A DNA stretch of 32,000 nucleotides, taken from NCBI RefSeq assembly GCF_000008625.1, contig NC_000918.1, positions 1,290,001 through 1,322,000 of the forward strand. Reading direction: 5' to 3'. Positions within the stretch are counted from its first letter, which is position 1. The number at the start of each line of letters is the position of its first letter. The position numbers and the translations under genes were made by a program. The notes under the pieces are model-generated. The model was not told the origin of the DNA and searched no databases. It was given only the letters and a program-made list of their open reading frames with translations. Shown piece after piece: positions 6,497 to 25,349 of this stretch. Source of the DNA: Aquifex aeolicus VF5. GTDB lineage: Bacteria > Aquificota > Aquificia > Aquificales > Aquificaceae.

Positions 6497-6615
6497 TTGT
6501 GAGAAGGGATTACGTATATTTTTTTCCCTTTCTTACTTGTAGGCTCCCAGGTTTTCTCCAAGAGTGAGTAAGATACGCTGAACCACTTCTCCCCGTCAAT
6601 GCCCGTAAAGATCAT
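6448..6615 (-). CDS. Probable true N-terminal segment of the PilM/GspL-like gene, in the frame +1 relative to the main ORF (a -1 shift is needed to join)
   Basis: The ATG at 6615-6613 forms an ATGA overlap with the GTPase stop and follows GGAAGG. It encodes MIFTGIDGEKWFSVSYSLLEKTWEPTSKKGKKIYVIPSHK, resembling the GIDIG phosphate-1 start of PilM/FtsA. The frame closes at 6448, and the main frame is open from 6532. Poly-A runs (A7, A6, A6 on the coding strand) lie in the overlap. Confidence 0.5.
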   Translation of the reverse strand: MIFTGIDGEKWFSVSYSLLEKTWEPTSKKGKKIYVIPSHKCLVKKKKQKLKRYPN

Positions 6616-7172
6616 CCTTCCATGTAAGATTTAATCAGTTTAAGTAAAAGCAGGAGGGTTTTCTTTACGTCTTCCTTGTTCTTCGCAGAGATTCCTATAA
6701 CGGGTATCCCTTCTTCTTCGGATATGTCTAAAGCTACGGCAACGTCTTCAGGAGGCCAGGCGTTTGGGAGATCCTGCTTGTTTGCCGCAACAACCATAGG
6801 AACCGGATACCTGCTCTGGAAGAAGTTTATTATCCTCCTCGCCTCGTGAAAGGTCTTCGGATCAGTACTGTCTACGAGTATTACTATGCCGAGGGCACCT
6901 TCTCCTAGAATTTCCCACATGAAGTTAAACCTGCTCTGTCCGGGGGTTCCGAAAAGGTAAAGCTCGTGTTCATCGTCTATCCTTATCTTTCCAAAATCCA
7001 TGGCAACTGTTGTCTGCTGTTTTACCTCTTTTTCCTTTTCGTGGGTTACTTTTTTGTCCGTAGTTACTGGTTCTATTTCGCTTATAGTCTTTATAAACTC
7101 CGTTTTTCCCGCTGCAAAAGGTCCTGCTACAACTATCTTTATTTTCTTTAAGTTATTCTTCTTTTCCGTCAT
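6612..7172 (-). CDS. Small P-loop GTPase, CvnD/MglA-related (COG2229-like)
   Basis: 186 aa with G1 GPFAAGKT, G3 LFGTPGQ and G4 ANKQD. TTVAMDFG is typical of the conservon CvnD-type family. The start forms an ATGA overlap with the upstream gene's stop. Confidence 0.85.
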   Translation of the reverse strand: MTEKKNNLKKIKIVVAGPFAAGKTEFIKTISEIEPVTTDKKVTHEKEKEVKQQTTVAMDFGKIRIDDEHELYLFGTPGQSRFNFMWEILGEGALGIVILVDSTDPKTFHEARRIINFFQSRYPVPMVVAANKQDLPNAWPPEDVAVALDISEEEGIPVIGISAKNKEDVKKTLLLLLKLIKSYMEG

Positions 7173-7861
7173 AACTTCTTGATTTTTTCAATTAATTTCG
7201 TCAAAAGATCCAAAGAAATCGTAGGCTTTCTTATCTCTTTTTTCCTCTTTCGTCTTATAGCACCTATAGCGAGGAGTCCGTAGAGTGTTCTGTACACGGT
7301 CAACTTATCAAGTCCGCTCTTTTCCAGTATATCTTTTACGGTGTTCTCTCCGTTTACCAGTTCCAGAACTTTTCTTTCTTCTTCCTTCAGGTTAGCCCTT
7401 TGCACTTTTACTTCCCAATCGGGGGCTTTTTCGAATACGAGGAGTTCATCGGATATCTTTCTCTCTGTTTCTTCAAGGGTGAGGTGGCGGGCAGCCTCCA
7501 TTATGAGTTCTTCCGCCGGAAAGGCAACCGGCACGTTCTCTGGATAATTTATAAACCCCTGTGTAAAGGAAAATATTCCGTCTTTGTTTTCCAGCCTGCT
7601 CAGGAAAAACTTCTTAATGGTTTCCGCCATAGTCCTTTCATTGAGCCTAAGCTTTTCTATCAACTTTTCAAAGTCACGATCTACGTAAACCCTGAAGACT
7701 TTATCCACCGGTCTTGCGAGTACAAGTTCTCCGTCTTTTATGTAGTAAGCAACCGTGATGTCGGGCCACTCGACTATCAGCACACCGCTCTTTTTATCGT
7801 GGTGAAGAACTTGAAGAATATCCGCAAAGGAAAAGGACTTTAAATCTCCCGTGAGAGCCAT
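7169..7861 (-). CDS. DUF4388 (PATAN-like) domain protein with a C-terminal wHTH-like segment (occupies the CvnC/DUF742 position)
   Basis: The N terminus LTGDLKSFSFADILQVLHHDKKSGVLIV...YYIKDGELVLA matches the DUF4388 signature as I recall it. The C-terminal ERKVLELVNGENTVKDILEKSGLDKLTVYRTLYGLLAIGAI looks like a winged helix. Confidence 0.7.
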   Translation of the reverse strand: MALTGDLKSFSFADILQVLHHDKKSGVLIVEWPDITVAYYIKDGELVLARPVDKVFRVYVDRDFEKLIEKLRLNERTMAETIKKFFLSRLENKDGIFSFTQGFINYPENVPVAFPAEELIMEAARHLTLEETERKISDELLVFEKAPDWEVKVQRANLKEEERKVLELVNGENTVKDILEKSGLDKLTVYRTLYGLLAIGAIRRKRKKEIRKPTISLDLLTKLIEKIKKL

Positions 7862-7864
7862 CGC

Positions 7865-8218
7865 TTAGATGAGTTCCTTTAATTTCTGCTGAGCCTTCTT
7901 GATTTCCATATAAATCAATCCAAGTTTACTGTCCTGTCCCGCTAAAGTCGTGAGAACGGCATCCTGTCCTATTTCCGTTATTACTACGTATCCTTTATCT
8001 CCCTTGATCGTTATCTGCTCCATAGTTCCCTTACCGAGTTCTTCAACGACTCTTTCACCGAGTGAGAGTATGGCGGCACTCATAGCGGCTACTTTGTCCT
8101 CTTCTGCGTTCGCGGGAAGAACTGAAGCTATGGGTAATCCGTCTAGACTCACTATAGCCGCCCCCTCAATCCCTGAAGCCTTTATCAATTCCTGTAGAAC
8201 TTCCTCGTATTTATTCAT
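7865..8218 (-). CDS. Roadblock/LC7 domain protein (MglB/CvnB-like)
   Basis: 117 aa. GIEGAAIVSLDGLPIAS...AAMSAAILSLGERV...VVITEIG is a classic Roadblock/LC7 pattern. It ends 3 nt upstream of the next gene. Confidence 0.85.
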   Translation of the reverse strand: MNKYEEVLQELIKASGIEGAAIVSLDGLPIASVLPANAEEDKVAAMSAAILSLGERVVEELGKGTMEQITIKGDKGYVVITEIGQDAVLTTLAGQDSKLGLIYMEIKKAQQKLKELI

Positions 8219-8230
8219 TCTTTCCCTCCA

Positions 8231-8890
8231 TTACTTAAAAAATTCTAACTCCTTTTCTATTTCTTCCAGAATACTTTTAGTTCTGGTTATTTCCGCTTTC
8301 ACCAATTCCTCTTCACCGGCTTCGGCGTAATTTTTCACTTTCTTTATTGTATCATCCAACTCGTAAATTTTGCGTTTTATGTTGTCAATCTTCTTTGCAA
8401 TTTCACTTAAAGATTCTCTGAGTATTTCTCCGAGAGCACCCGCTGGGTCGAGACCGGTCGGCAACGCTCCGTACTCTATTTCACCCTGCTTTAACCTTTC
8501 AACTACTTCCATAATTTGGCCGAGCTTTTCAACAACTTCCGTATACTCCACGTGGACGTCTGCAAGTTGCTTTTCCAGAGAACTTTTAACGTTTTTTATA
8601 CCTCCTTCAATATAACTCACTATATCCCGTAGCTCCTCGTACAGGGGGGAGTAAAAGACACTTCCTTCAAGGTTTTGTCTATTTTCGTAAACAAATTCCG
8701 CAAAGTAGAGAAGCACTCCTAGAAGTTTTTCTACCTTTTTTGTGTATACGTAAGAAGTAAAGGCTGAAACAAAGAGGGCGTAACCTCCGGCGATTAAGGA
8801 AGATACTATTAATTCCGTTTTTAATACAAAGAAGAGAATCAAGAAGTTCAATAAAAATAGAAAAATAAAAATAAAAAGATAAGCTTTCAA
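8231..8890 (-). CDS. Two-TM membrane protein with a HAMP-like linker and long coiled coil, with no kinase/ATPase domain (occupies the CvnA position)
   Basis: 219 aa with two N-terminal hydrophobic helices, then heptad-rich E/K sequence (GALGEILRESLSEIAKKIDNIKRKIYELDD). It has a TTG start and lies 12 nt upstream of the Roadblock gene. Confidence 0.6.
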   Translation of the reverse strand: MKAYLFIFIFLFLLNFLILFFVLKTELIVSSLIAGGYALFVSAFTSYVYTKKVEKLLGVLLYFAEFVYENRQNLEGSVFYSPLYEELRDIVSYIEGGIKNVKSSLEKQLADVHVEYTEVVEKLGQIMEVVERLKQGEIEYGALPTGLDPAGALGEILRESLSEIAKKIDNIKRKIYELDDTIKKVKNYAEAGEEELVKAEITRTKSILEEIEKELEFFK

Positions 8891-8925
8891 AAACTCATCG
8901 GTTAAAGAAATCCACTTCAGTACCT

Positions 8926-9558
8926 TTATTTCTTGCCCACCTCCTCGAACTTTATTAATTTAATTTTATCAACATCCTTACCGAAGGATACACCGAATTC
9001 CGAAAGCTCGCTGACCTTAGCTAGATGGACGTAGCCTTCTATTACTTTCATAGCGTAGAGTTCTTTTACTTTATTCAGGTAATTGAATATATCCTCTTCG
9101 AGTATGGCGTTTCCCACGTAACCCCTCTGGAGTGTAGAAACGTGGAATATTAGCTTGAAAGGTTTTCCATATTTTGCGAGTTGTTTTAGGTCGTTATTCA
9201 AGGCTTCCTGAACCTGTTCGTCGGGAAGCTCTCCGAAGTACGCCATGTATAGAGCCTTTGGATTGTACTTTTTGAGGGAAGGGATTAAGTCTTTTCCGCC
9301 CTCTATATACCACGCTTTTTTGCCAAGTATCCTGAGACCCGTTACGAGTGCCCCTGCAAATACCGCACAGAGTTGAGAGTCTTCCATAAAGACTACACCT
9401 ACTTCGTTAAAGCCGTTTTTTGCAAGCAGTTTTGCGGTAGCGTAGGCAACGTTGAGCCTCGGGTTTACGGTCTTGGGATTTATGAACTTGTTTTCCGCAA
9501 AGGCGAACTTTAAAAATGGAAATGAAAGTCCTGCAATTAAGAGTTCTCTCCTATTCAT
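8926..9558 (-). CDS. Secreted/periplasmic hypothetical protein
   Basis: 210 aa with an N-terminal signal-like MNRRELLIAGLSFPFLKFAFA. I recognise no family. The start overlaps the ilvH stop by 8 nt. Confidence 0.6.
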   Translation of the reverse strand: MNRRELLIAGLSFPFLKFAFAENKFINPKTVNPRLNVAYATAKLLAKNGFNEVGVVFMEDSQLCAVFAGALVTGLRILGKKAWYIEGGKDLIPSLKKYNPKALYMAYFGELPDEQVQEALNNDLKQLAKYGKPFKLIFHVSTLQRGYVGNAILEEDIFNYLNKVKELYAMKVIEGYVHLAKVSELSEFGVSFGKDVDKIKLIKFEEVGKK

Positions 9559-10129
9559 TTTCCTCCTCCTTTATGGACATTTCCCTCCTCATGGCGACCT
9601 TACCGGTTCTCGCCATCTCCTTGATACCGAAAGGTTTTAAGAGCTCAATCATGGCGTTTATTTTATCCTCATCTCCAGTAACCTCTATCGTGTAAGTGTC
9701 CGGAGAAACGTCAACGACCTTGCCCCTGAATATCTCCGTTATCCTCAGAACTTCGTCCCTTGCCCTGGAAGAGGGAGTGTAAACCTTTATGAGAGCGAGT
9801 TCCCTCTCCACGTGGGGAACGTCCGTCAGGTCGGAAACCTTCAGGGTGTCTATTAGTCTCCTGAGTTGTTTTACGACCTGCTCAATTACTATATCGTCTC
9901 CGATAACCTCAATAGTCATTCTCGATATTCCCTTTTCGTGAGTTTCGCCTACGGAAAGTCCTTCTATGTTGTAACCCTTTCCCGCGATTAAGGTCGCTAT
10001 TCTCGCAAGGACTCCCATCTCGTTCCTGACTTTTACCGTGATTATGTGCTTCCTGACCTGTCCTTTTCTAATTTCCCTCTTCTGGGGTTTAATAACTTCA
10101 AGCTCACTCTTTCCCAAAGTATCCGCCAT
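9551..10129 (-). CDS. ilvH: Acetolactate synthase small (regulatory) subunit
   Basis: 192 aa with an ACT domain (HIITVKVRNEMGVLARIATLIAGKGYNIEGLSVGETHEKGISRMTIEV) plus the ALS small-subunit C-terminal domain. No large-subunit gene is adjacent. Confidence 0.9.
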   Translation of the reverse strand: MADTLGKSELEVIKPQKREIRKGQVRKHIITVKVRNEMGVLARIATLIAGKGYNIEGLSVGETHEKGISRMTIEVIGDDIVIEQVVKQLRRLIDTLKVSDLTDVPHVERELALIKVYTPSSRARDEVLRITEIFRGKVVDVSPDTYTIEVTGDEDKINAMIELLKPFGIKEMARTGKVAMRREMSIKEEENE

Positions 10130-10156
10130 TACAATCCTCCTGTTTAATAATTTATT

Positions 10157-12034
10157 ATGAAAGTATTAAAAAAAGAGGAACTTGTCCCTACGCTTTATCA
10201 ATTGTTCTCACAGGCAAAGGAAAAGGTACTTGTTGTTTCCGCATGGATCAGGGGAAGCATATTTAAGGAACTCCTATCTTTGCTTCCCGAGAATGTTCAG
10301 CTTGAGGTAATCGTGAGGGCAGGGAACTTATCTGACATGGATATCACGGACGAAGCCTTCTTCAGGGAAACTAAGAAAAAGGGAGGAAGGATACTTCTCA
10401 ACCCCAAACTCCACTCTAAGTTCCTGATAATAGACGAAAGGTACGCGGTTGTAGGTTCTTCAAACATAACCTTTATGGGGCTATACCCTGAGGGAAATGT
10501 AGAGACAAACGTCTTGATAGAAGAAAAAGAAAAGGTAAAGGAACTCCTGGAGTTTTACGAGAACCTAAAAGAAGAATCCGTAGATTACACGGACGTTGTC
10601 GGCTATGCGGTATCTTCCCGCTCTCCAAAAGAAGCGGAAATCGTACTTCTCGAAGATCTGAAAGAACAGACATACCTCGGCATTCAAGGGGAGGAGTTTT
10701 TCCTGTGCAGGCTGAGCAACGTTTCGGGAAAAAAGGAAACCAGGGAAGATGCCCTTAACAGGATACTCTCGTCGGAAGTATGGGACTGGAAGGTCGCAGC
10801 CCTTTTTGCCCACCTTTACGAAAGACCTGAGATAAAGACGGGAAGGCTTGAGATACTCGGTGAGTACGAAAAGGAGAGAAATCTTTTTAAAACACCAACG
10901 AAAAGCGTGGAGTCCGGTTCTCTCGTGAAGAAACTAGAGCCAGAAAGCGAGGAACTAAAGAGAATACTCTTCAAGAACCACTCAGGGTACGACATGAAGT
11001 ATCCCACGTACCTCGGAAAACTCTACAACACGGAAGTAAAAGCTTACCTCGACATGGACAAGGTTCTGGGTATGCACATGGCCGTTTTGGGAACAACTGG
11101 TTCGGGAAAGACAACTTTTGTAAAAAAGATACTAAAAAACTTCAAGGAAAGCGAGGTGATAATTTTCGATATTTACGGAGAATACGCGCAGGAACTTGGA
11201 GCGAAAGAAGTAATAGTGGAAAACGTCTTAATGCCGATAAGCGTAGAAGACGTAAAGGATTACCTGAAGGAAGCTGGTTCCACTTTGGAAGAACGCTCAA
11301 CGGAAGAAAAGGAATTCTTTTCCGTCTTCAGAAGGGCATTAAAACCCGATATTGAAGCGACGGAGCTGAAAGAAAAGAGTTTTAAGGAAATATACGAGGA
11401 AGCTGTGAAGAACCTCCACTCTCTTCATCTAAAACAGGATGCCCAGTCAGTTTACGAACACCTTGAAAGAACCTACTCCAGAGGAGCTTTAGAACAACAA
11501 CCTAAGGTATTAAAGGAAGTTGTAGATTTTCTGAACTCCGAAGAAAGGGTGAAGGTCTTTAACTTCAAGGAAGTGGACATAACCGAAACGAAAGTAAACC
11601 TCACGGGGTTAATACTGAAAGAAATATTTATAAGAGCCAAAAAGGACAGGAAACCGCGATTGATAGTCATAGAAGAGGCTCAGAACGTAGCTCCCGAAAG
11701 GGGAACGGGAGATGTCCCGAGCGGAAAGGAGAACGTCGCTTTCGTTTACGCCAAAAAGATAGCGATGGAGGGGAGAAAGTTAAACCTAGGCTTGATAGCT
11801 ATAACTCAAAGACCCGCAAACCTGAGCAAGTTTATACTCTCTCAACTAAACACTCAGGTGATATTTAAATTAATCACAAAAAACGACCTTGACGCGGTAT
11901 CGCCCTTTTTTGAATACTCCAAAGAGGATATTTTCAGGCTCTTGCCTTTTTTAAAGCCGGGAACGGCCTTCGTAAGCGGCTTGGCCGTCCCCTTCAGTTT
12001 TCTGTTTCAGATGGAGGAAATTCCCTACTACTGA
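10157..12034 (+). CDS. Fusion protein: N-terminal PLD-family (HKD) nuclease domain + HAS-barrel + HerA/FtsK-type P-loop ATPase
   Basis: A perfect HxK(x4)D(x6)GSxN motif (HSKFLIIDERYAVVGSSN) is at nt 10412-10465. Walker A (GTTGSGKT) is at 11090-11113, and Walker B is LIVIEEAQNVAP. The HerA-like context is LGKLY...LDMDKVLGMHMAVLG, with a C-terminal ITQRPANLS. Confidence 0.8.
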   Translation: MKVLKKEELVPTLYQLFSQAKEKVLVVSAWIRGSIFKELLSLLPENVQLEVIVRAGNLSDMDITDEAFFRETKKKGGRILLNPKLHSKFLIIDERYAVVGSSNITFMGLYPEGNVETNVLIEEKEKVKELLEFYENLKEESVDYTDVVGYAVSSRSPKEAEIVLLEDLKEQTYLGIQGEEFFLCRLSNVSGKKETREDALNRILSSEVWDWKVAALFAHLYERPEIKTGRLEILGEYEKERNLFKTPTKSVESGSLVKKLEPESEELKRILFKNHSGYDMKYPTYLGKLYNTEVKAYLDMDKVLGMHMAVLGTTGSGKTTFVKKILKNFKESEVIIFDIYGEYAQELGAKEVIVENVLMPISVEDVKDYLKEAGSTLEERSTEEKEFFSVFRRALKPDIEATELKEKSFKEIYEEAVKNLHSLHLKQDAQSVYEHLERTYSRGALEQQPKVLKEVVDFLNSEERVKVFNFKEVDITETKVNLTGLILKEIFIRAKKDRKPRLIVIEEAQNVAPERGTGDVPSGKENVAFVYAKKIAMEGRKLNLGLIAITQRPANLSKFILSQLNTQVIFKLITKNDLDAVSPFFEYSKEDIFRLLPFLKPGTAFVSGLAVPFSFLFQMEEIPYY

Positions 12035-12292
12035 TTACTTTTCCGCTCCGGCTTGTTCTTTTGCCTCCCTTGCCTTTTTCGCAAGCTCAGGAGAGTAAGC
12101 CTTACCCTGCCAGAGCATCTTGTAAACTACTTCGTAAGTACTTTCCGCGAGCTCCGTAAGCTCTTTGAAGAGCTTGTTAAAACCTTCGGACTTGTGGGAC
12201 TTTTCGTGGCTTTCCAGATCCTTCCAGAAGGTCACTATGAGTATTTCCCTGTCCTTGAGGGGGTGTTCCGTGGCCTGTCTGCGGTTGAACCT
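12035..12292 (-). CDS. ABM-fold (antibiotic-biosynthesis-monooxygenase/Dabb-like) protein, C-terminal part; frame interrupted
   Basis: The frame is open from 12292 (the listed ORF starts at GTG 12235). It encodes RFNRRQATEHPLKDREILIVTFWKDLESHEKSHKSEGFNKLFKEL, the beta3-alpha2 part of an ABM domain. It has no start or RBS of its own. Confidence 0.55.
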   Translation of the reverse strand, partial: RFNRRQATEHPLKDREILIVTFWKDLESHEKSHKSEGFNKLFKELTELAESTYEVVYKMLWQGKAYSPELAKKAREAKEQAGAEK

Positions 12293-12492
12293 TCAAGGGA
12301 AACACCACCGGTATTCAGGAGCACGAATCCTCCGTAAAAACCGTCATCAGAGTGATAGGTCTTTACGTGCTCACAGAGATATGCGGCCTTTTCCATAACC
12401 TCATCTATGTCAACACCTTCCTTCAAAACAACGTAATTTATGTTTACAATGGCATCTTCAGGTATGTCAGGTATTAAAGGATTTCCGTACAT
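12235..12492 (-). CDS. ABM-fold protein, N-terminal part; frame interrupted
   Basis: The ATG at 12492 sits 8 nt after GGAGG (12505-12501). IVNINYVVLKEGVDIDEVMEKAAYL...GFYGGFVLLN is the beta1-alpha1-beta2 part of an ABM domain. The last roughly 18 codons (STADRPRNTPSRTGKYS) look non-native. The conserved continuation is in the -1 frame. Confidence 0.55.
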   Translation of the reverse strand: MYGNPLIPDIPEDAIVNINYVVLKEGVDIDEVMEKAAYLCEHVKTYHSDDGFYGGFVLLNTGGVSLEGSTADRPRNTPSRTGKYS

Positions 12493-12515
12493 CTCACTCA
12501 CCTCCTTAGCATTTT

Positions 12516-12533
12516 AGGATATTCAAATATCCT
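12516..12533. promoter_or_regulatory. Perfect 8-2-8 inverted repeat AGGATATTcaAATATCCT (candidate operator)
   Basis: Read directly from the sequence. It lies 11 nt upstream of the ABM gene's GGAGG, in the 93-nt divergent region shared with the M50 protease gene. Confidence 0.4.
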
Positions 12534-12559
12534 TATATTTTTATGATTTGAAACATGTG

Positions 12560-12587
12560 TTTACACCTTTTTTAAGTGAATTACAAT
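12560..12587 (+). promoter_or_regulatory. Candidate sigma-70-type promoter (TTTACA - 16 nt - TACAAT) for the M50 protease gene
   Basis: TTTACA is at 12560-12565 and TACAAT at 12582-12587. The ATG at 12595 is 7 nt after the -10 element with no Shine-Dalgarno sequence, so the mRNA could be leaderless. Confidence 0.4.
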
Positions 12588-12594
12588 TAATAAG

Positions 12595-13248
12595 ATGTTT
12601 ATGAAACCTGAAGATTTGATACTTACCATTCCCGCTTTGATGATAGCGGTTATACTCCACGAAGTAGCCCACGGGTACGTAGCCTACAAAATGGGCGACC
12701 CAACCCCAAAAGCAGCGGGAAGGCTTACCCTAAACCCTATACCGCACATAGACCTTTTGGGAACTATAATCCTTCCCGGGCTTTTGATGCTCGTAGGCTC
12801 TCCCATCGTCTTCGGATGGGCAAAACCCGTTCCCATAAACCCTTACAACTTCAAGGACCTTAAAAAGGGGATGTTCCTCACCTCCATAGCCGGAGTGGCT
12901 ATGAACTTTTCCCTCGCTGTGCTCTTCGGTATGCTGAACAGACTCCTCAGGGCTGTTGTTTACTCGGTGCCCGAAGAAGTTGCAACTTTCTTGATAATTC
13001 CACTAATGATCTTTACGACTAAAGTGGTTTTAATAAACCTCGTTTTAGGACTCTTTAACGCCATTCCCATACCGCCCCTGGACGGAAGTAAAGCCCTGAT
13101 GAGCCTTCTTTCTTACAAGTACTGGGAGATGTTCTACAGGTTTGAGCAGTATGGATTTTTAATAATTACCGTTCTCCTCTTTACAGGAGTCCTCCAGAGT
13201 ATCATCCTTCCTCCATTAGTCTTTCTCTACAACCTCATACTCAATTAG
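12595..13248 (+). CDS. Site-2-protease-family (peptidase M50) membrane zinc metalloprotease
   Basis: 217-aa polytopic protein. It has HEVAHG (HExxH) in the first TM region and a NAIPIPPLDGSK (LDG) motif in a later TM. Confidence 0.85.
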   Translation: MFMKPEDLILTIPALMIAVILHEVAHGYVAYKMGDPTPKAAGRLTLNPIPHIDLLGTIILPGLLMLVGSPIVFGWAKPVPINPYNFKDLKKGMFLTSIAGVAMNFSLAVLFGMLNRLLRAVVYSVPEEVATFLIIPLMIFTTKVVLINLVLGLFNAIPIPPLDGSKALMSLLSYKYWEMFYRFEQYGFLIITVLLFTGVLQSIILPPLVFLYNLILN

Positions 13249-15588: not shown

Positions 15589-17580
15589 ATGGGTGTATCT
15601 GAGCAAAGGTTTAAGCTAAAAACAAACCTGAAACCCGCAGGGGACCAGCCGAAAGCCATAAAAAAACTCCTTGAAAACCTAAGGAAAGGCGTAAAAGAAC
15701 AAACACTTCTCGGAGTCACGGGAAGCGGAAAGACTTTTACTCTAGCAAACGTAATAGCGAAGTACAACAAACCAACTCTTGTGGTAGTTCACAACAAAAT
15801 TCTCGCGGCACAGCTATACAGGGAGTTTAAAGAACTATTCCCTGAAAACGCTGTAGAGTACTTTGTCTCTTACTACGACTATTACCAACCTGAAGCCTAC
15901 ATTCCCGAAAAAGATTTATACATAGAAAAGGACGCGAGTATAAACGAAACGCTGGAACGTTTCAGACACTCCGCCACGATATCCGTTCTAGAAAGGAGGG
16001 ACGTTATAGTAGTTGCTTCAGTTTCTTGCATATACGGACTCGGGAAACCTGAGCACTACGAAAACCTGAGGATAAAACTCCAAAGGGGAATAAGACTGAA
16101 CTTGAGTAAGCTCCTGAGGAAACTCGTTGAGCTAGGATATCAGAGAAATGACTTTGCCATAAAGAGGGCTACCTTCTCGGTTAGGGGAGACGTGGTTGAG
16201 ATAGTCCCTTCTCACACGGAAGATTACCTCGTGAGGGTAGAGTTCTGGGACGACGAAGTTGAAAGAATAGTCCTCATGGACGCTCTGAACAGACACGTTA
16301 TAAAAGAAGTGGAAGAGTATTCTGTATTTCCCGCCTCCCACTACATAGCCCCCAGACCCACCGTTGAACAGGCACTGAAAGAAATAGAAAAGGATTTAAT
16401 AGAGAGAGTAAAGTGGTTTAAAAGTCAGGGAAGGGAAGTGGAAGCCCAGAGGCTCTACCAGAGAACTATGTACGACATTGAGATGATAAGAGAACTTGGG
16501 CACTGCAAAGGGATAGAAAACTACTCCCGTTACTTTGACGGGAGAAAACCCGGAGAGCCACCCTTTACTCTCCTTGACTACTTCCCTGAAGACTTCCTGC
16601 TCATAATAGACGAGTCTCACATGACAATTCCTCAACTCAGGGCTATGTACAACGGGGACAGGAGCAGGAAGGAAAAACTCGTGGAGTATGGCTGGAGGCT
16701 TCCCTCAGCACTCGACAACAGACCCCTCAAATTTGAAGAGTTTCTGGAAAGGATTAATCAGGTAATTTACGTTTCAGCAACACCCGGAGACTGGGAACTT
16801 GAAAGGAGCGAGGCTGTAGTGGAACAAATAGTAAGACCTACGGGACTCCTGGACCCTGTTGTGGAAGTAAGACCGAAGATGAACCAGCTTGAGAACTTAG
16901 TAAAGGAAATAAAGGAAGTCAAAAAGAGAAAGGAAAGGGCTTTAGTTCTTACAACAACAAAAAGGCTTGCAGAAGAAATAGCTGACTACCTGACCGAAAG
17001 GAAGATAAGAGCCAAATATATGCACTCAGAACTGGACGCAATAGAAAGGGCACAACTGATAAGGGAACTGAGGGAGGGAAGCATAGACGTTATAGTGGGT
17101 GTAAACCTCTTGAGGGAAGGGCTCGACCTTCCCGAAGTTTCACTAGTTGCCATAATGGACGCGGACAAAGAGGGCTTTTTAAGGAGTTATCAGGCACTAA
17201 TACAGACCATAGGAAGGGCTGCGAGAAATATACACGGAAAGGCTATACTCTACGCGGACAGGATAACTAAAGCCATGGAAAAAGCGATTCAAGAGACCCA
17301 GAGGCGTAGAAAGATACAGGAAGAGTTCAACAAGAAACACGGCATAACTCCAAAATCCATAAAGAAGCCCGTAAAGGAACTCCTCGCAATAGAAGAGCTT
17401 GATTACGTGAGCGTTCCCGAAGAACTGCCGAAGGGAGTTAAATCAGAAGAGGACATACTCAAGAAGATCGAAAAGCTTGAAAAGGAAATGTGGAAATACG
17501 CTCAAAACTGGGAGTTTGAAAAAGCTGCAAAAGTTAGGGATGAAATTAAGAAACTGAAAAAGTTATTAGGTTTGGATTAG
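15589..17580 (+). CDS. uvrB: Excinuclease ABC subunit B
   Basis: 663 aa. It has GVTGSGKT Walker A, a DESH box ([11 protein letters not shown]), helicase motifs V/VI ([23 protein letters not shown]) and a C-terminal UVR domain ([16 protein letters not shown]). Confidence 0.96.
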
Positions 17581-17597
17581 AGAGGGGAAGCGGCCCA

Positions 17598-17948
17598 TTA
17601 GCCGCAGGAGAAAGAACTTCCGCATCCGCAGCTTCCGGTTGCGTTGGGGTTCCTTATCGTAAACCCACCGCCCATGAAGTCAACTACGTAGTCAAGTTCC
17701 GCACCGTTTACGTAGGGCATGGAGAAGGGGTCTATTACAACTTTCACTCCGTCGTATTCAAATACGTGGTCTCCTTCTTCTACGGTGTCATCAAATCCCA
17801 TAGCGTACTGGAATCCGGAGCATCCACCGGGAACTACTCTAATCCTGAGTATGGGGTTTTCTATGTTGTTCTCCTGTGCAACCTTCTTGATTTCTTCAAC
17901 AGCCTTGTCAGTTACCTTAAAAATAAATTGTTGAGCTTGCTCTTGCAT
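17598..17948 (-). CDS. iscA: HesB/IscA-family iron-sulfur cluster insertion protein
   Basis: 116 aa with GGCSGFQY and a C-terminal CGCGSSF Cys triad. Confidence 0.88.
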   Translation of the reverse strand: MQEQAQQFIFKVTDKAVEEIKKVAQENNIENPILRIRVVPGGCSGFQYAMGFDDTVEEGDHVFEYDGVKVVIDPFSMPYVNGAELDYVVDFMGGGFTIRNPNATGSCGCGSSFSCG

Positions 17949-18164
17949 AACTCCTACCTCCTTTAAAGTTTAATTTACTAAAGATTAAAAGTATACAACT
18001 TCCGAAGTAGGTTTATGAGGAAATTCATAAATGCTTTTCAAATGCTAAATCGGGGATAAATTTAAAAGTTAAATGAAGAGAAAAAAGAAGCTAAAAAAGA
18101 GAGTGAGACTTGACTTTGCAAAATTCGTGGTGGAGGAGGTTAAATCCAAACTGGGGGAAAGAAG

Positions 18165-18794
18165 ATGGAATTTTACGACCCGAAAGTAAAGCAGGAAATA
18201 AAAGTACTGCCAAAGGACTACGTCCAGTCCGTGGATAACATGTCCGCAAACGACTTTTTAAAGATATACCTGGAAACCTTACGTTATCAGGATCCCTTTA
18301 ACCAAACTGACATCTCAAAAAGTTTGGACGATATGGTAAAGATAAACCAGATAAAGTACTTCACCGAAATGAAACAATTCCTCGAAAGCCTGAAGGCGTG
18401 GATGAACCAGATGACGTTCTTAAACACCGCTACTCTAATAGGAAAAGAATTTATCTTCAGGACTGAAGTTTTAGACACTATAAAGAGGGATAAATACTAT
18501 ATACTTTCACCGGAAAACGTTAACAACGCGAAAATAAGGGTTTACGACGGAGAAGAACTCGTTAAAGAGGTAAAAATTGATATAAAAAAGGGTTTGAACG
18601 AGATAGACGTCTCGGATTTGCCCAAAGGTCAGTTCAGTATAAAAATCTTTAAAGGGGATAACGAACTCACAGGCTGGCAACTCGGTTTTAAAGAAAAAAT
18701 AAACGCGGTAAGTATCCTGAACGGAGATTTATATCTGGAACTCTCTGAAGGAACTTTGATTTCTTCCGATAAAATTATTTACGTGGGGGGATAA
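18165..18794 (+). CDS. flgD: Flagellar hook capping/assembly protein FlgD
   Basis: The N-terminal FLKIYLETLRYQDPFNQTD matches the conserved FlgD motif (..L..QL.NQDPL.P.D). An Ig-like C-terminal domain follows. It lies directly upstream of flgE. Confidence 0.85.
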   Translation: MEFYDPKVKQEIKVLPKDYVQSVDNMSANDFLKIYLETLRYQDPFNQTDISKSLDDMVKINQIKYFTEMKQFLESLKAWMNQMTFLNTATLIGKEFIFRTEVLDTIKRDKYYILSPENVNNAKIRVYDGEELVKEVKIDIKKGLNEIDVSDLPKGQFSIKIFKGDNELTGWQLGFKEKINAVSILNGDLYLELSEGTLISSDKIIYVGG

Positions 18795-18797
18795 AGC

Positions 18798-20246
18798 ATG
18801 CTAAGGAGCTTTTACAACGCGATAACTGGCATGGACGTTTCTAGGTTTGCCCTGGACGTTACCTCAGACAACCTAGCAAATGCAAATACAGTAGGGTTCA
18901 AGAAATCAAGACCAATTTTTCAGGACATGGTTTCACAGGTAGTTGTAGGCTTAAACACCACAACAGGAACGGTAAAAACGACCACATTCGGAGCCGGAGC
19001 GGTAGTAGATTCCACTCAAAAGGTATGGACAATAGGCAGTTTTAAACAAACCGAGATAACGACTGACCTCGCTATAGAAGGTAAAGCTCTCTTTATACTC
19101 AGAGATGTTTTAACAAACCAAACATATTATACGAGAGACGGCAGATTCAGAATAAACAGGGAAGGATACCTTATTAATCCAAACGGACTTTACGTTCAGG
19201 GATTTAAGGTAAATCCTGTAACAGGTGAAGTTACCGGAACACAGTTAGAAGATATAAGAGTAGAAACGCAGATACCTCCGAAGGCTACCGGTGAGATTTA
19301 CTTTAATCCGCCGACGAATTTAGATGAGAGAGCTCCTATTATAGACCAAACTACTACACCTTTTAATCCTCTGGATTCATTTACCTACAATTACAGGTAC
19401 ACGTTAACTATTTATGACAGTTTAGGCAGGGAAGTTCCGGCGGATATTTATTTTGTAAAAACGGGGACGAATCAGTGGAAAGTATACTTCTTGGCTTCTT
19501 TAAAAGAAAGATATATAAACGTTGATTGGAACGGGGATGACGATAAAACAGATATAGTTTTCCTTGATTTATTTAACGATCAGGTTCATATTGCGGATAA
19601 CGGAACTTTTAGTACGCTCCCTACATTCGCTTCAAAGACCCTCGAGTTTGACCCCTCAACGGGGAAATTGGTATACATTCCGGGTGGTGATATTGTTCAG
19701 GATACAGCTAATCAAAAGTTTTACCTAGAAGTTGATTTAACACCGGAAAGTGGACCTTCTGAAATAAACGATCCGAACGATACAGAGTCTTACTTAAACA
19801 AGTTAGGGGCAAAGTTAGGTAGTGAAACTAATAAAATTAAAATTTACGTAGGTGAAGGTATATTACAGAATAATGTAATTCAAAATTCCTACATCACCCA
19901 ACACGCAGCGGACTTTGTCGTTACTATGGATCAAGACGGGTACGCAAGGGGCGAATTAATAGACTTGTACGTTCTTTCTGAGGATGGTGTTGTTGTAGGT
20001 GTATACTCAAATGGGGAAACCCTTCCTACTTACAGACTTGCCCTCGCACAGTTCACCGATCCCGAGGAACTTGTCAAGAAAGGTTCCAACCTTTACGCTT
20101 CTGTAAAAACTCCTACGATCTTACTCCCCGGAGGTTCTAACAAAATACGCTCCGCCGTTGTTGAAATGTCAAACGTGGACATAGCAAAGGAGTTCATAAA
20201 CCTTATAACAGCCCAAAGAACTTATCAGGTAACGCAAGGACGATAA
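18798..20246 (+). CDS. flgE: Flagellar hook protein FlgE (as written, lacks the conserved extreme C terminus)
   Basis: The N-terminal [12 protein letters not shown]...[14 protein letters not shown] and the distal [22 protein letters not shown] match rod/hook family ends. The ORF stops 5 codons after YQ, and the conserved tail continues in the -1 frame to 20293. Confidence 0.88.
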
Positions 20247-24663: not shown

Positions 24664-24987
24664 ATGGCAGAACTGGAAATACATGTAAAACGGAGCGTAT
24701 TTTCACCTGATGGAAAATTTTTAGGAGTCGTGGAAATGAAGATATGGAAAGTACCAAAAGATAAATGCCATCCTGAAGGCTACAAGTACTCCCTTGTTTT
24801 TGCCTTATACAATGAAACAACGGGAAAATTTGATGGAAACTTTTTAAGATACGATAATTATCAATGTGAAGGACACCATAAACATCTTAAAGGTAAAAAG
24901 TTCCCTTATAAATTTACGGATATTGAACAATTGATAGAAGATTTTAAGAACGATTTTGAAAAATTAATTGAGGAGGTTGTGAAATGA
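24664..24987 (+). CDS. DUF6516/TumE-like putative toxin of a type II TA-like pair
   Basis: 107 aa. PEGYKYSL...FLRYDNYQCEGHHKH resembles the DUF6516 signature as I recall it (RYDN..H...HHKH). The stop overlaps the next start (ATGA). Confidence 0.55.
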   Translation: MAELEIHVKRSVFSPDGKFLGVVEMKIWKVPKDKCHPEGYKYSLVFALYNETTGKFDGNFLRYDNYQCEGHHKHLKGKKFPYKFTDIEQLIEDFKNDFEKLIEEVVK

Positions 24988-25349
24988 AAATTAAAAAAGT
25001 GGTAATAGAACCCATAGAAGATTTTTTTGAGGAAGTAAAATACGCAGTTAAACAGCATAAAACCGGAAAAAATGTTAAACTCGAATATGTATCTTTTAAT
25101 TCAGTGGAAGAATTGAGCAGGATTTTAAGCCCCAGGAGAAAAGAAATTATTGATGTGGTTAAAAAGTACAATCCGTCCTCTATAAGAGAACTCGCTCAGA
25201 TTTTAAAAAGGGACTACAAAAACGTCTATAAAGACGTAATTTTACTGAAGAAAGCAGGATTTCTTGAACTTAAAAAAGAAGGGAAAAACCTAAAACCTGT
25301 GGTGCCATATGAAGAAATAGAAGTGATCGTTAAAGTGGGTAAATCTTAA
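24984..25349 (+). CDS. wHTH DNA-binding protein, putative cognate antitoxin/regulator (COG4190 / HVO_A0114-like)
   Basis: 121 aa. The central LSPRRKEIIDVVKKYNPSSIRELAQILKRDYKNVYKDVILLKKAGFLEL is an ArsR/MarR-like winged helix. It has a 4-nt ATGA overlap with the upstream gene. Confidence 0.6.
   Translation: MKIKKVVIEPIEDFFEEVKYAVKQHKTGKNVKLEYVSFNSVEELSRILSPRRKEIIDVVKKYNPSSIRELAQILKRDYKNVYKDVILLKKAGFLELKKEGKNLKPVVPYEEIEVIVKVGKS

Follow-up and report, generated by a model that had tools for sequence, protein, structure and literature searches.

The gene at positions 10157 to 12034 on the forward strand of the stretch examined here (the window: 32,000 nucleotides of Aquifex aeolicus VF5, contig NC_000918.1, positions 1,290,001 to 1,322,000) encodes a protein of 625 amino acids, O67704. 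Judging from its sequence, the protein combines an HKD nuclease of the PLD family, a HAS-barrel and a HerA ATPase in one polypeptide, with its catalytic residues intact and all three parts under purifying selection. O67704 probably feeds DNA into its own nuclease. Taken by itself, the molecular mechanism of a self-contained, ATP-driven DNA translocase-nuclease is one that we hold with good confidence. The whole reading, in which such a cytoplasmic translocase-nuclease has the housekeeping task of processing broken DNA or DNA ends in Aquificota, is put forward tentatively, with slightly less than even confidence, and within it housekeeping DNA-end processing is weakly favoured over a dedicated mobile anti-phage system.

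The coding sequence was taken from the open reading frame (ORF) listing, its ATG and TGA codons were checked, and an exact-sequence look-up identified the product as AAC07672.1, WP_010881208.1 and UniProt O67704 of A. aeolicus VF5. The protein has been in public databases since the 1998 genome and is still uncharacterised, being labelled there by domain names only ('helicase HerA domain-containing', 'DUF87 domain-containing' or 'PLD phosphodiesterase domain-containing' protein). Full-text literature searches with the accession, the locus tag and combinations of domain and organism names found no paper on O67704 or on any HKD-HerA fusion, though an earlier mention may exist; the already characterised, mundane role that the original prediction had named as grounds for dropping it was not encountered.

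Domain architecture and conservation

Three Pfam matches in O67704 lie far beyond chance, and they bear out the order of domains that had first been read from motifs. PLDc_2 covers residues 14-136 (55.4 bits against a cut-off of 27, 7e-15) and is accompanied by PLDc (26.7 bits against 21.9), HAS-barrel covers residues 148-238 (42.1 bits against 25.2, 9.6e-11), and DUF87, the 'Helicase HerA central domain', covers residues 285-490 (118.9 bits against 23.2, 4.5e-34). On the DNA, where all features of the gene lie on the forward strand, the single-HKD PLD-family nuclease domain (residues 1-140, delimited by PLDc_2, an AlphaFold2 model and Foldseek) occupies 10157-10576 and the HAS-barrel 10598-10870. 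The HerA-type P-loop ATPase domain of the FtsK-HerA superfamily (residues 285-621), assigned from DUF87, sequence matches in the Protein Data Bank (PDB) and Foldseek, occupies 11009-12019. In the AlphaFold2 monomer model of the full-length protein (predicted local distance difference test, pLDDT, 87.6; predicted template-modelling score, pTM, 0.72), the last PLD helix ends at about residue 140 and the first HAS strand starts from 147, which leaves a linker of about six residues. The Kyte-Doolittle 19-residue mean peaks at 1.36, and no transmembrane segment or signal peptide is present; since no segment reaches transmembrane hydrophobicity, O67704 would be a soluble cytoplasmic protein.

Conservation was assessed in an alignment of 21 family members that share 36-72% identity with the window protein. 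The HKD signature (H86, K88, D93, G100, S101 and N103) in the catalytic motif HSKFLIIDERYAVVGSSN (residues 86-103, 10412-10465) is invariant in 21/21, as are the Asn and Glu of N114-V-E116 (10496-10504), 3' of the HKD motif, and S141 at the junction of the PLD domain and the HAS-barrel. The position of E116 is presumably that of the conserved Glu of Nuc-type enzymes. In the ATPase, the Walker A motif GTTGSGKT (residues 312-319, 11090-11113) has G312, T314, G315, G317, K318 and T319 invariant, both Glu of the acidic pair E506/E507 in the Walker B motif RLIVIEEA (residues 501-508, 11657-11680) are fixed, and E538, G539, R540, K541, Q551, R552 and P553 do not vary within EGRKLNLGLIAITQRP (residues 538-553, 11768-11815). 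The motifs GTTGSGKT, LIVIEEA and ITQRP, on which a HerA-type ATPase had been proposed, are the first of these stretches and parts of the second and third. R540 and Q551 are, by position, a candidate arginine finger and a candidate sensor Gln; the signature of the HerA/FtsK class has been given as a Gln ending core strand 4, with the arginine finger just upstream (PMC10853773).

A helical insertion lies inside the ATPase domain (residues 361-460, 11237-11536; helices 363-459 in the model). Mean pairwise identity is 46% in the PLD domain, 52-59% in the ATPase core, 36% in the helical insert and 32% in the HAS-barrel, which is the least conserved domain. The values for the PLD domain and the ATPase core suggest that the nuclease domain is constrained as strongly as the motor.

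A PLD domain of the nuclease type

Sequence matches and the predicted fold both indicate that the PLD domain is of the nuclease type and not of the lipid-enzyme or cardiolipin-synthase type. Modelled on its own (residues 1-146; pLDDT 96.8, pTM 0.91), the domain has as its nearest solved structures Helicobacter pylori NucT, with a template-modelling (TM) score of 0.80, and Salmonella Nuc, with 0.75, which agrees with the Nuc/NucT type assigned in the original prediction to the first 130 or so residues. Other close Foldseek matches are the 5' exonuclease PLD3 of mouse and human, Zucchini and BfiI. In a profile search of the PDB, the only proteins to align over the whole domain were the single-HKD nucleases NucT, Nuc, PLD4 and Zucchini together with a poxvirus nicking-joining enzyme; lipid phospholipases D aligned at a short motif segment only. 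This result argues against the lipid-type enzyme that had been considered as a way in which the prediction might fail.

The domain is PLD-like, about 140-150 amino acids long, and carries one HxK(x)4D(x)6GSxN motif. It shares superfamily and fold with NucT but is not a NucT orthologue, its score being 15.5 bits against the NCBIfam equivalog cut-off of 297. The NCBIfam model DrmC_I gives 33.2 bits against a cut-off of 133, and no DrmA/B or MkoA genes lie near the O67704 gene.

An ATPase of the HerA clade

The ATPase is placed by sequence and model in the HerA clade of the FtsK-HerA superfamily. The HAS-barrel stands directly before the ATPase, DUF87 carries Walker A and Walker B, positions for an arginine finger and a sensor Gln are present, and the model has the fold of a HerA protomer. 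The top Foldseek matches are Thermococcus kodakarensis HerA in complex with NurA (9x1m, 2.8e-27) and Saccharolobus solfataricus HerA (4d2i, 2.4e-26), and PDB sequence matches to HerA proteins range from 1e-14 to 6e-18. With the HAS-barrel and DUF87 present and HerA rings as the best structural matches, membership of a non-HerA clade, the second way in which the prediction might have failed, is contradicted. The anti-phage HerA proteins of the Sir2-HerA and DUF4297-HerA complexes are found by Foldseek at 1e-26 to 1e-21 (8xav at 3.6e-26). As both kinds of HerA are recovered with E-values of 1e-27 to 1e-25, the fold was dropped as a means of telling a repair HerA from a defence HerA.

On profile scores, O67704 is the orthologue of no named HerA. 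The NCBIfam models of repair HerA, NF040819 and NF040937, give 73.1 bits against a cut-off of 970 and 72 bits against 800, and those of anti-phage HerA, NF042943 and NF042944, give 108.8 bits against 800 and 73.5 bits against 850, so that all four cut-offs are missed.

Distribution and descent of the fusion

A word-indexed search of 5.8 billion proteins returned 67 close relatives; those with a named source all belong to Aquificota (Aquifex, Hydrogenivirga, Thermocrinis, Persephonella and metagenome-assembled genomes, MAGs, of Aquificaceae), after which scores collapse to plain DUF87 proteins; an orthologue in Venenivibrio was also identified. The discrete fused family comprises about 25 clusters at 50% identity, mostly from Aquificota. 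HMMER was also run exhaustively, with a profile, over 1.84 billion cluster representatives. Among its matches, a first tier holds full-length PLD-HAS-HerA proteins at 346-876 bits, with named members from a Thermotogota MAG, Acidobacteriota MAGs, an Aquificota MAG and the deep-sea thermophile bacterium 3DAC. A second tier consists of proteins of about 630-756 amino acids at about 200-308 bits, in most of which the HKD motif closes with GSFN and the match to the ATPase is broken into two stretches. When a HerA-only profile is used, tier 1 scores at least 233 bits and any unfused HerA at most 161 bits, which makes tier 1 discrete, and tier 2 scores 119-194 bits, overlapping the unfused HerA proteins at 135-161 bits. 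In a tree built by neighbour joining, which is a crude method, from 484 columns of the HerA moiety, tier 1 comes out as a clade and tier 2 falls between tier 1 and the unfused HerA proteins. The two fusion tiers may or may not share a single origin, the HerA part of tier 2 scoring like unfused HerA and taking an intermediate position in the crude tree.

Within Aquificota, the same tree contains three subclades, namely Thermocrinis-type Aquificaceae, Hydrogenothermaceae, and Aquifex with Hydrogenivirga. The gene tree follows taxonomy and is therefore consistent with vertical descent. No full-length relative was found on IMG/VR viral contigs or among 50,697 phage records, and none of 72,556 plasmid records covers at least 80% of the query. 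The GC content of the gene is that of its surroundings, without anomaly.

A form of 448 amino acids annotated in Venenivibrio stagnispumantis was considered as an orthologue lacking the PLD domain and was rejected. The frame at 17439-19373 on the minus strand of that locus (L019) is open for 645 codons, encodes HAKFIIIDKKIALISSSN and with it a whole PLD domain, and scores 801 bits to the full profile. No ATG, GTG or TTG stands upstream in frame, and an ATG lies one base out of frame ('aaaATGGGaaagta'). The gene was annotated from an internal ATG because a canonical in-frame start codon is missing, and this loss may reflect an apparent frameshift of one nucleotide, a non-canonical start or an assembly error. 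Two clusters of 448-residue proteins (P0064 and P0157) are probably the same artefact.

Genomic context of relatives

All Aquificota contexts examined were housekeeping, and no defence genes were found in them. The copy of Hydrogenivirga has a glycosyltransferase gene on one side and a homoserine dehydrogenase gene on the other, that of Thermocrinis albus is flanked by a GNAT acetyltransferase gene and prfA, that of Persephonella by rpmB and obg, and that of Aquifex pyrophilus has unrelated genes around it. When ORFs within 6 kb of the gene were clustered all against all for 17 tier-1 loci, no neighbour family was common beyond closely related Hydrogenivirga-type genomes. No conserved partner is thus found in the 17 loci, and the fusion gene appears truly stand-alone, as had been predicted from the window. 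Beyond Aquificota, the fusion of a Thermotogota MAG is flanked by an EF-G-family gene and an arginase gene. In an Acidobacteriota MAG (L025, 6296-11186), the fusion stands between a divergent radA/sms gene and a gene for a PIN-domain (YacL-like) protein, followed by ispD and ispF, a position that we take to be the disA slot of the Bacillus radA-disA-yacL-ispD-ispF cluster.

The nuclease NurA is the usual companion of HerA in end resection. A scan of the window with the NurA hidden Markov model (HMM) gave no match, and Pfam annotation of every other ORF of the window gave no Mre11 and no Rad50, in agreement with the original prediction that none of the three is encoded nearby. NurA is widespread in Hydrogenothermaceae and occurs in a more distant form in Desulfurobacteriaceae. 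Persephonella has a NurA gene (PF09376) 2.5 kb downstream of the fusion, on the same strand, and Venenivibrio has one 6 kb from it. Among all Aquificaceae loci examined, the NurA HMM found none, and a NurA profile search returned no match named from Aquificaceae, the word index being limiting.

Four NurA loci were examined (L016, 12452-13904; L019, 10001-11433; L020, 10001-11469; L021, 10001-11457). A small HHH_3 gene follows NurA in all four and a HerA gene in none. The HHH_3 gene encodes a ComEA-like helix-hairpin-helix protein of about 100 amino acids and overlaps the stop codon of NurA with its start codon. NurA and HHH_3 look like a conserved pair in Hydrogenothermaceae, one that is not known to have been described earlier.

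The locus and other features of the window

In the window, the gene is preceded by the divergent ilvH (ALS_ss_C and ACT in Pfam), which starts at 10129 and leaves a start-to-start spacer of 27 nucleotides. On the other side, the stop codon of a convergent minus-strand ORF (12035-12037) abuts the TGA at 12032-12034 with a spacer of 0. Both distances are those of the original prediction; the name 'ABM' that it gave to the convergent gene finds no Pfam support. This convergent ORF (12035-12501) lies in two frames, an ORF of 88 amino acids at 12235-12501 and then one of 66 amino acids at 12035-12235, neither of which has a Pfam match. The frames overlap at about 12240-12290, by a frameshift, a pseudogene or a sequencing error, and the repaired product of 156 amino acids has a sub-threshold match to sulphur oxygenase reductase (SOR; E 2e-4).

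The spacer at 10130-10156 holds an AGGAGG-type ribosome-binding site for ilvH (cctcct on the forward strand) and no obvious Shine-Dalgarno sequence for the PLD-HerA gene. The promoter of the latter would therefore lie inside ilvH, or its mRNA would be leaderless. A consensus scan for promoters and terminators over 9400-12700 returned sites no more numerous than in shuffled sequence.

The neighbours in the window are all housekeeping genes: lspA, dapF, exbD, ilvH, dnaX, uvrB, asd, secA and pmbA, together with genes for an AIR-synthase-related (purL-like) protein, a class-I release factor, an M50 peptidase, a cytochrome c and flagellar hook proteins, and the MglA-like trio described next. At 6612-8218 on the minus strand, genes for a Ras-like small GTPase (ATP_bind_1/Ras), a DUF4388 protein with a TrmB-like helix-turn-helix and a Roadblock/LC7 protein form a trio that resembles an MglA/MglB-type polarity or GTPase-switch module, and a coiled-coil membrane protein is encoded next to it at 8231-8890. 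At 24664-25349 on the forward strand, two small overlapping genes, a TumE-family toxin gene (PF20126, 9e-11) and then an HVO_A0114-family gene (PF25212, 1.3e-26), look like a toxin-antitoxin pair amid housekeeping genes.

Discussion

HerA forms a hexameric ring that moves double-stranded DNA through its pore, and its partners (the NurA dimer, Sir2 and DUF4297) sit on its HAS-barrel face. By analogy, O67704 would assemble as a hexameric ring and pump double-stranded DNA through a central pore. With only about six residues between the PLD domain and the HAS-barrel that follows it, six PLD domains should sit on the HAS face. One active site takes two single-HKD domains, so six copies could give up to three composite active sites. 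Enzymes of the Nuc type work through a covalent phosphohistidine intermediate and need no metal ions, and composite sites at the pore mouth of O67704 would by the same analogy be metal-independent and of the phosphohistidine type. DNA drawn in by the motor would then be cut at the paired HKD sites by the pore mouth; as an alternative arrangement, the HKD domains may pair across two head-to-head rings.

Several known systems share parts of this design. The HerA-NurA machines of archaea, Deinococcus and Thermus (9x1m, 4d2i) have the same HAS-barrel and HerA ATPase and provide the best structural matches, and they resemble the proposed machine in a ring translocase that feeds a nuclease on the HAS face, in their distribution among thermophiles and in a chromosomal housekeeping setting. 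They differ in that the nuclease of O67704 is covalently fused, with six per ring in place of a NurA dimer, and in that it has an HKD/PLD fold, predicted to be metal-independent and to use a phosphohistidine intermediate, where NurA has an RNase-H-like fold. Linkage to nurA, mre11 or rad50 is also missing, and the score of 73 bits compares with an equivalog cut-off of 970. The anti-phage complexes Sir2-HerA (Nezha) and DUF4297-HerA (Hailibu) (8j4u, 8sub, 8wiv, 8xau, 9c1m, 8ziq) likewise place an effector on the N-terminal face of a HerA ring; they give the highest sequence-profile scores of the ATPase and a structural similarity equal to that of repair HerA. In contrast to O67704, their effector, a Sir2 NADase or a DUF4297 nuclease, is a separate protein encoded in a two-gene operon in defence islands. 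O67704 comes from one gene that includes its HKD effector and stands among housekeeping genes, no Sir2 or DUF4297 gene is adjacent, and its score stays at 108.8 bits against 800.

An N-terminal single-HKD nuclease fused or coupled to an ATP-driven DNA motor is also found in SauUSI, in the fusions of HKD and SF2 helicase domains (PbeA, Mokosh MkoC) and in DISARM DrmC, and this likeness extends to the PLD fold of SauUSI and to profile matches of DrmC, MkoB and MkoC. The motor of O67704 is, however, of the ring-forming HerA/FtsK class and not a monomeric or dimeric SF2 helicase as in SauUSI, PbeA and MkoC, and Pfam finds neither an SF2 domain nor a target-recognition domain, such as that of SauUSI for modified DNA, in it. 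Nuc of Salmonella pKM101 and NucT of H. pylori have the same fold, the same size and the same single motif, and O67704 would, like them, need dimerisation, but they are small, secreted or periplasmic and ATP-independent, whereas in O67704 the HKD domain forms the N-terminal part of a motor protein of the cytoplasm. DndH and other 'HerA/FtsK capture' proteins (PMC10853773) carry an endonuclease domain and a HerA/FtsK ATPase on one polypeptide; DndH differs in its size of about 1700 amino acids, a restriction-endonuclease-fold nuclease, many extra domains, a C-terminal HerA and a multi-subunit system. No HKD-HerA fusion is described in that work.

O67704 therefore belongs to none of NurA-HerA, Sir2-HerA, DUF4297-HerA, SauUSI, PbeA and Mokosh type II, since equivalog cut-offs are missed, partner genes are missing and the motor class differs from SF2; at the level of domains, it belongs in the HerA clade and in the HKD nuclease superfamily. 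PLD-HAS-HerA is a small, discrete and uncharacterised family, and the coupling of a translocase to a nuclease is itself a known theme.

The two roles offered in the original prediction, DNA-end processing and one-gene defence, are still the two live options for the cell biology of this protein. Vertical, taxonomy-tracking inheritance in a phylum of small genomes, the housekeeping surroundings, an unremarkable GC content, the absence of copies from the phage, viral-contig and plasmid collections searched and the constraint on both domains weakly favour a housekeeping role. The adjacency to radA in Acidobacteriota, the presence of NurA 2.5 kb and 6 kb away in two genera of Hydrogenothermaceae and the apparent lack of RecBCD and AddAB in A. 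aeolicus, for which the evidence is given below, point weakly in the same direction.

The strongest competitor is a single-gene defence against phages or plasmids, fixed in Aquificota, in which invading DNA is captured and pulled in by the HerA ring and then broken down by the fused HKD nuclease. The protein would then be a covalent counterpart of Sir2-HerA, of DUF4297-HerA or of the 'HerA/FtsK capture' systems. We regard this as possible but doubtful, and a number of observations speak for it and weigh against a housekeeping role. Both halves match defence components best: the top NCBIfam match of the ATPase is HerA_antiphage at 108.8 bits and PADLOC HerA reaches 137 bits (1.4e-40), both above the repair HerA models at about 73 bits, and the best defence-library matches of the PLD segment alone are DrmC (8e-11) and MkoB (5.5e-10) of PADLOC. 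All of these scores remain far below family cut-offs where these are given (108.8 against 800 for HerA, 33 against 133 for DrmC). The PLD fold also resembles the nuclease domain of the restriction enzyme SauUSI (TM 0.75, 22% identity in Foldseek), and pairs of nuclease and NTPase are a recurrent theme of defence (bioRxiv 10.1101/2025.07.10.664194; PMC10853773).

The contexts of distant fusions point the same way. In bacterium 3DAC (L022, 6538-17874), two overlapping small genes precede the PLD-HerA gene (8001-10064), one for a 242-residue ABC-type ATPase like HEC-02A (8.5e-15), AriA and NsnB and the other for a 250-residue protein without a family match, and a complete Type I restriction-modification system (hsdM, hsdS, hsdR) lies about 1 kb downstream, so that the fusion may be part of a three-gene defence module. 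Two tier-2 loci (L023, 3701-9755; L027, 300-3124) contain WYL-WCX regulators, and in the latter the regulator stands directly upstream of the tier-2 gene on the same strand; the former also has an IetA-like AAA+ ATPase, and a phage-type integrase is found at a third locus (L024). The question raised with the original prediction, whether the architecture sits in defence islands elsewhere, is answered in the affirmative by 3DAC and the tier-2 fusions, with their defence or mobile contexts, and not by the Aquificota copies. As gene order in Aquificota is scrambled in general, a missing defence island there is weak evidence, and the proximity of NurA to the fusion is not conserved in Hydrogenothermus or in another Hydrogenothermaceae MAG.

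Against the defence explanation, the gene is vertical and taxonomy-tracking within Aquificota, where it stands among housekeeping genes, and no copies were found on phages, viral contigs or plasmids in the collections searched. Furthermore, no sensor, regulator or self/non-self component is evident, and a constitutive fusion would need control to spare host DNA. An end-processing enzyme could at the same time degrade linear DNA of foreign origin. RecBCD acts in the repair of breaks as well as in the destruction of such DNA, and the repair and defence roles are accordingly not exclusive.

A rather improbable alternative is that O67704 serves as the HerA partner of a NurA encoded elsewhere, as a canonical NurA-HerA resection machine with a second, fused HKD nuclease. 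The presence of NurA in Hydrogenothermaceae and Desulfurobacteriaceae is in line with this idea, the four NurA loci have no adjacent canonical HerA, and the fusion is the only HerA near NurA (2.5 kb in Persephonella, 6 kb in Venenivibrio); A. aeolicus has also been credited with homologues of NurA and HerA (PMC4641729). However, no NurA was found in the window or in the Aquificaceae loci examined, the constant companion of NurA in the four loci is the HHH_3 gene and not HerA, and the HAS-barrel face on which NurA docks would be taken by the fused PLD domains. A motor for DNA transfer or uptake, in the manner of Ced, TdtA or conjugation ATPases and with a nuclease that would process DNA as NucT does when Helicobacter is transformed, is very improbable: NucT is the best structural match of the PLD domain, weak matches to CedD (60 bits) and CedB (24 bits) in NCBIfam and to TrwB_AAD_bind and FtsK_SpoIIIE in Pfam exist, and the HerA-like TdtA is reported to drive DNA donation in Thermus (PMC5365140), but these matches are confined to the P-loop region and well below cut-offs, O67704 has no transmembrane segment or signal peptide, and no pilus, secretion or competence genes are adjacent in any context.

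If housekeeping DNA-end processing is the role of the fusion, its place in the cell can be considered further. In the survey of genomes by Rocha et al. (2005), PriA is missing from A. aeolicus, and it accompanies RecBCD or AddAB wherever either occurs, one endosymbiont excepted. Taken together, these two facts imply that A. aeolicus has neither of the canonical end-resection machines, and, given the conservation of the fusion in a deep-branching phylum, the fusion may be the missing end-resection activity. In its most far-reaching form, which we offer as a speculation with a rather low probability, PLD-HAS-HerA would carry most of the resection of double-strand ends in Aquificota and in a few further thermophilic bacteria. 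The protein would then be a one-polypeptide functional analogue of RecBCD/AddAB and of archaeal NurA-HerA that combines a ring translocase with a metal-independent HKD nuclease, with six half-sites forming three sites at the pore mouth or a nuclease chamber between two head-to-head rings.

Nuclease-coupled HerA rings are central to DNA-break repair in archaea and to several anti-phage systems whose structures were solved recently, and every characterised machine of this kind has, to our knowledge, its effector as a separate subunit. With the nuclease covalently attached, an HKD-HerA ring would have a set stoichiometry of 6:6 and a set geometry at the HAS face. Such a protein would be a compact, thermostable model for the hand-over of DNA from ring to nuclease and for the pairing of HKD half-sites on a six-fold ring. 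Should its role prove to be fixed defence, the gene would represent an unusual single-gene immunity factor, vertically inherited and phylum-wide.

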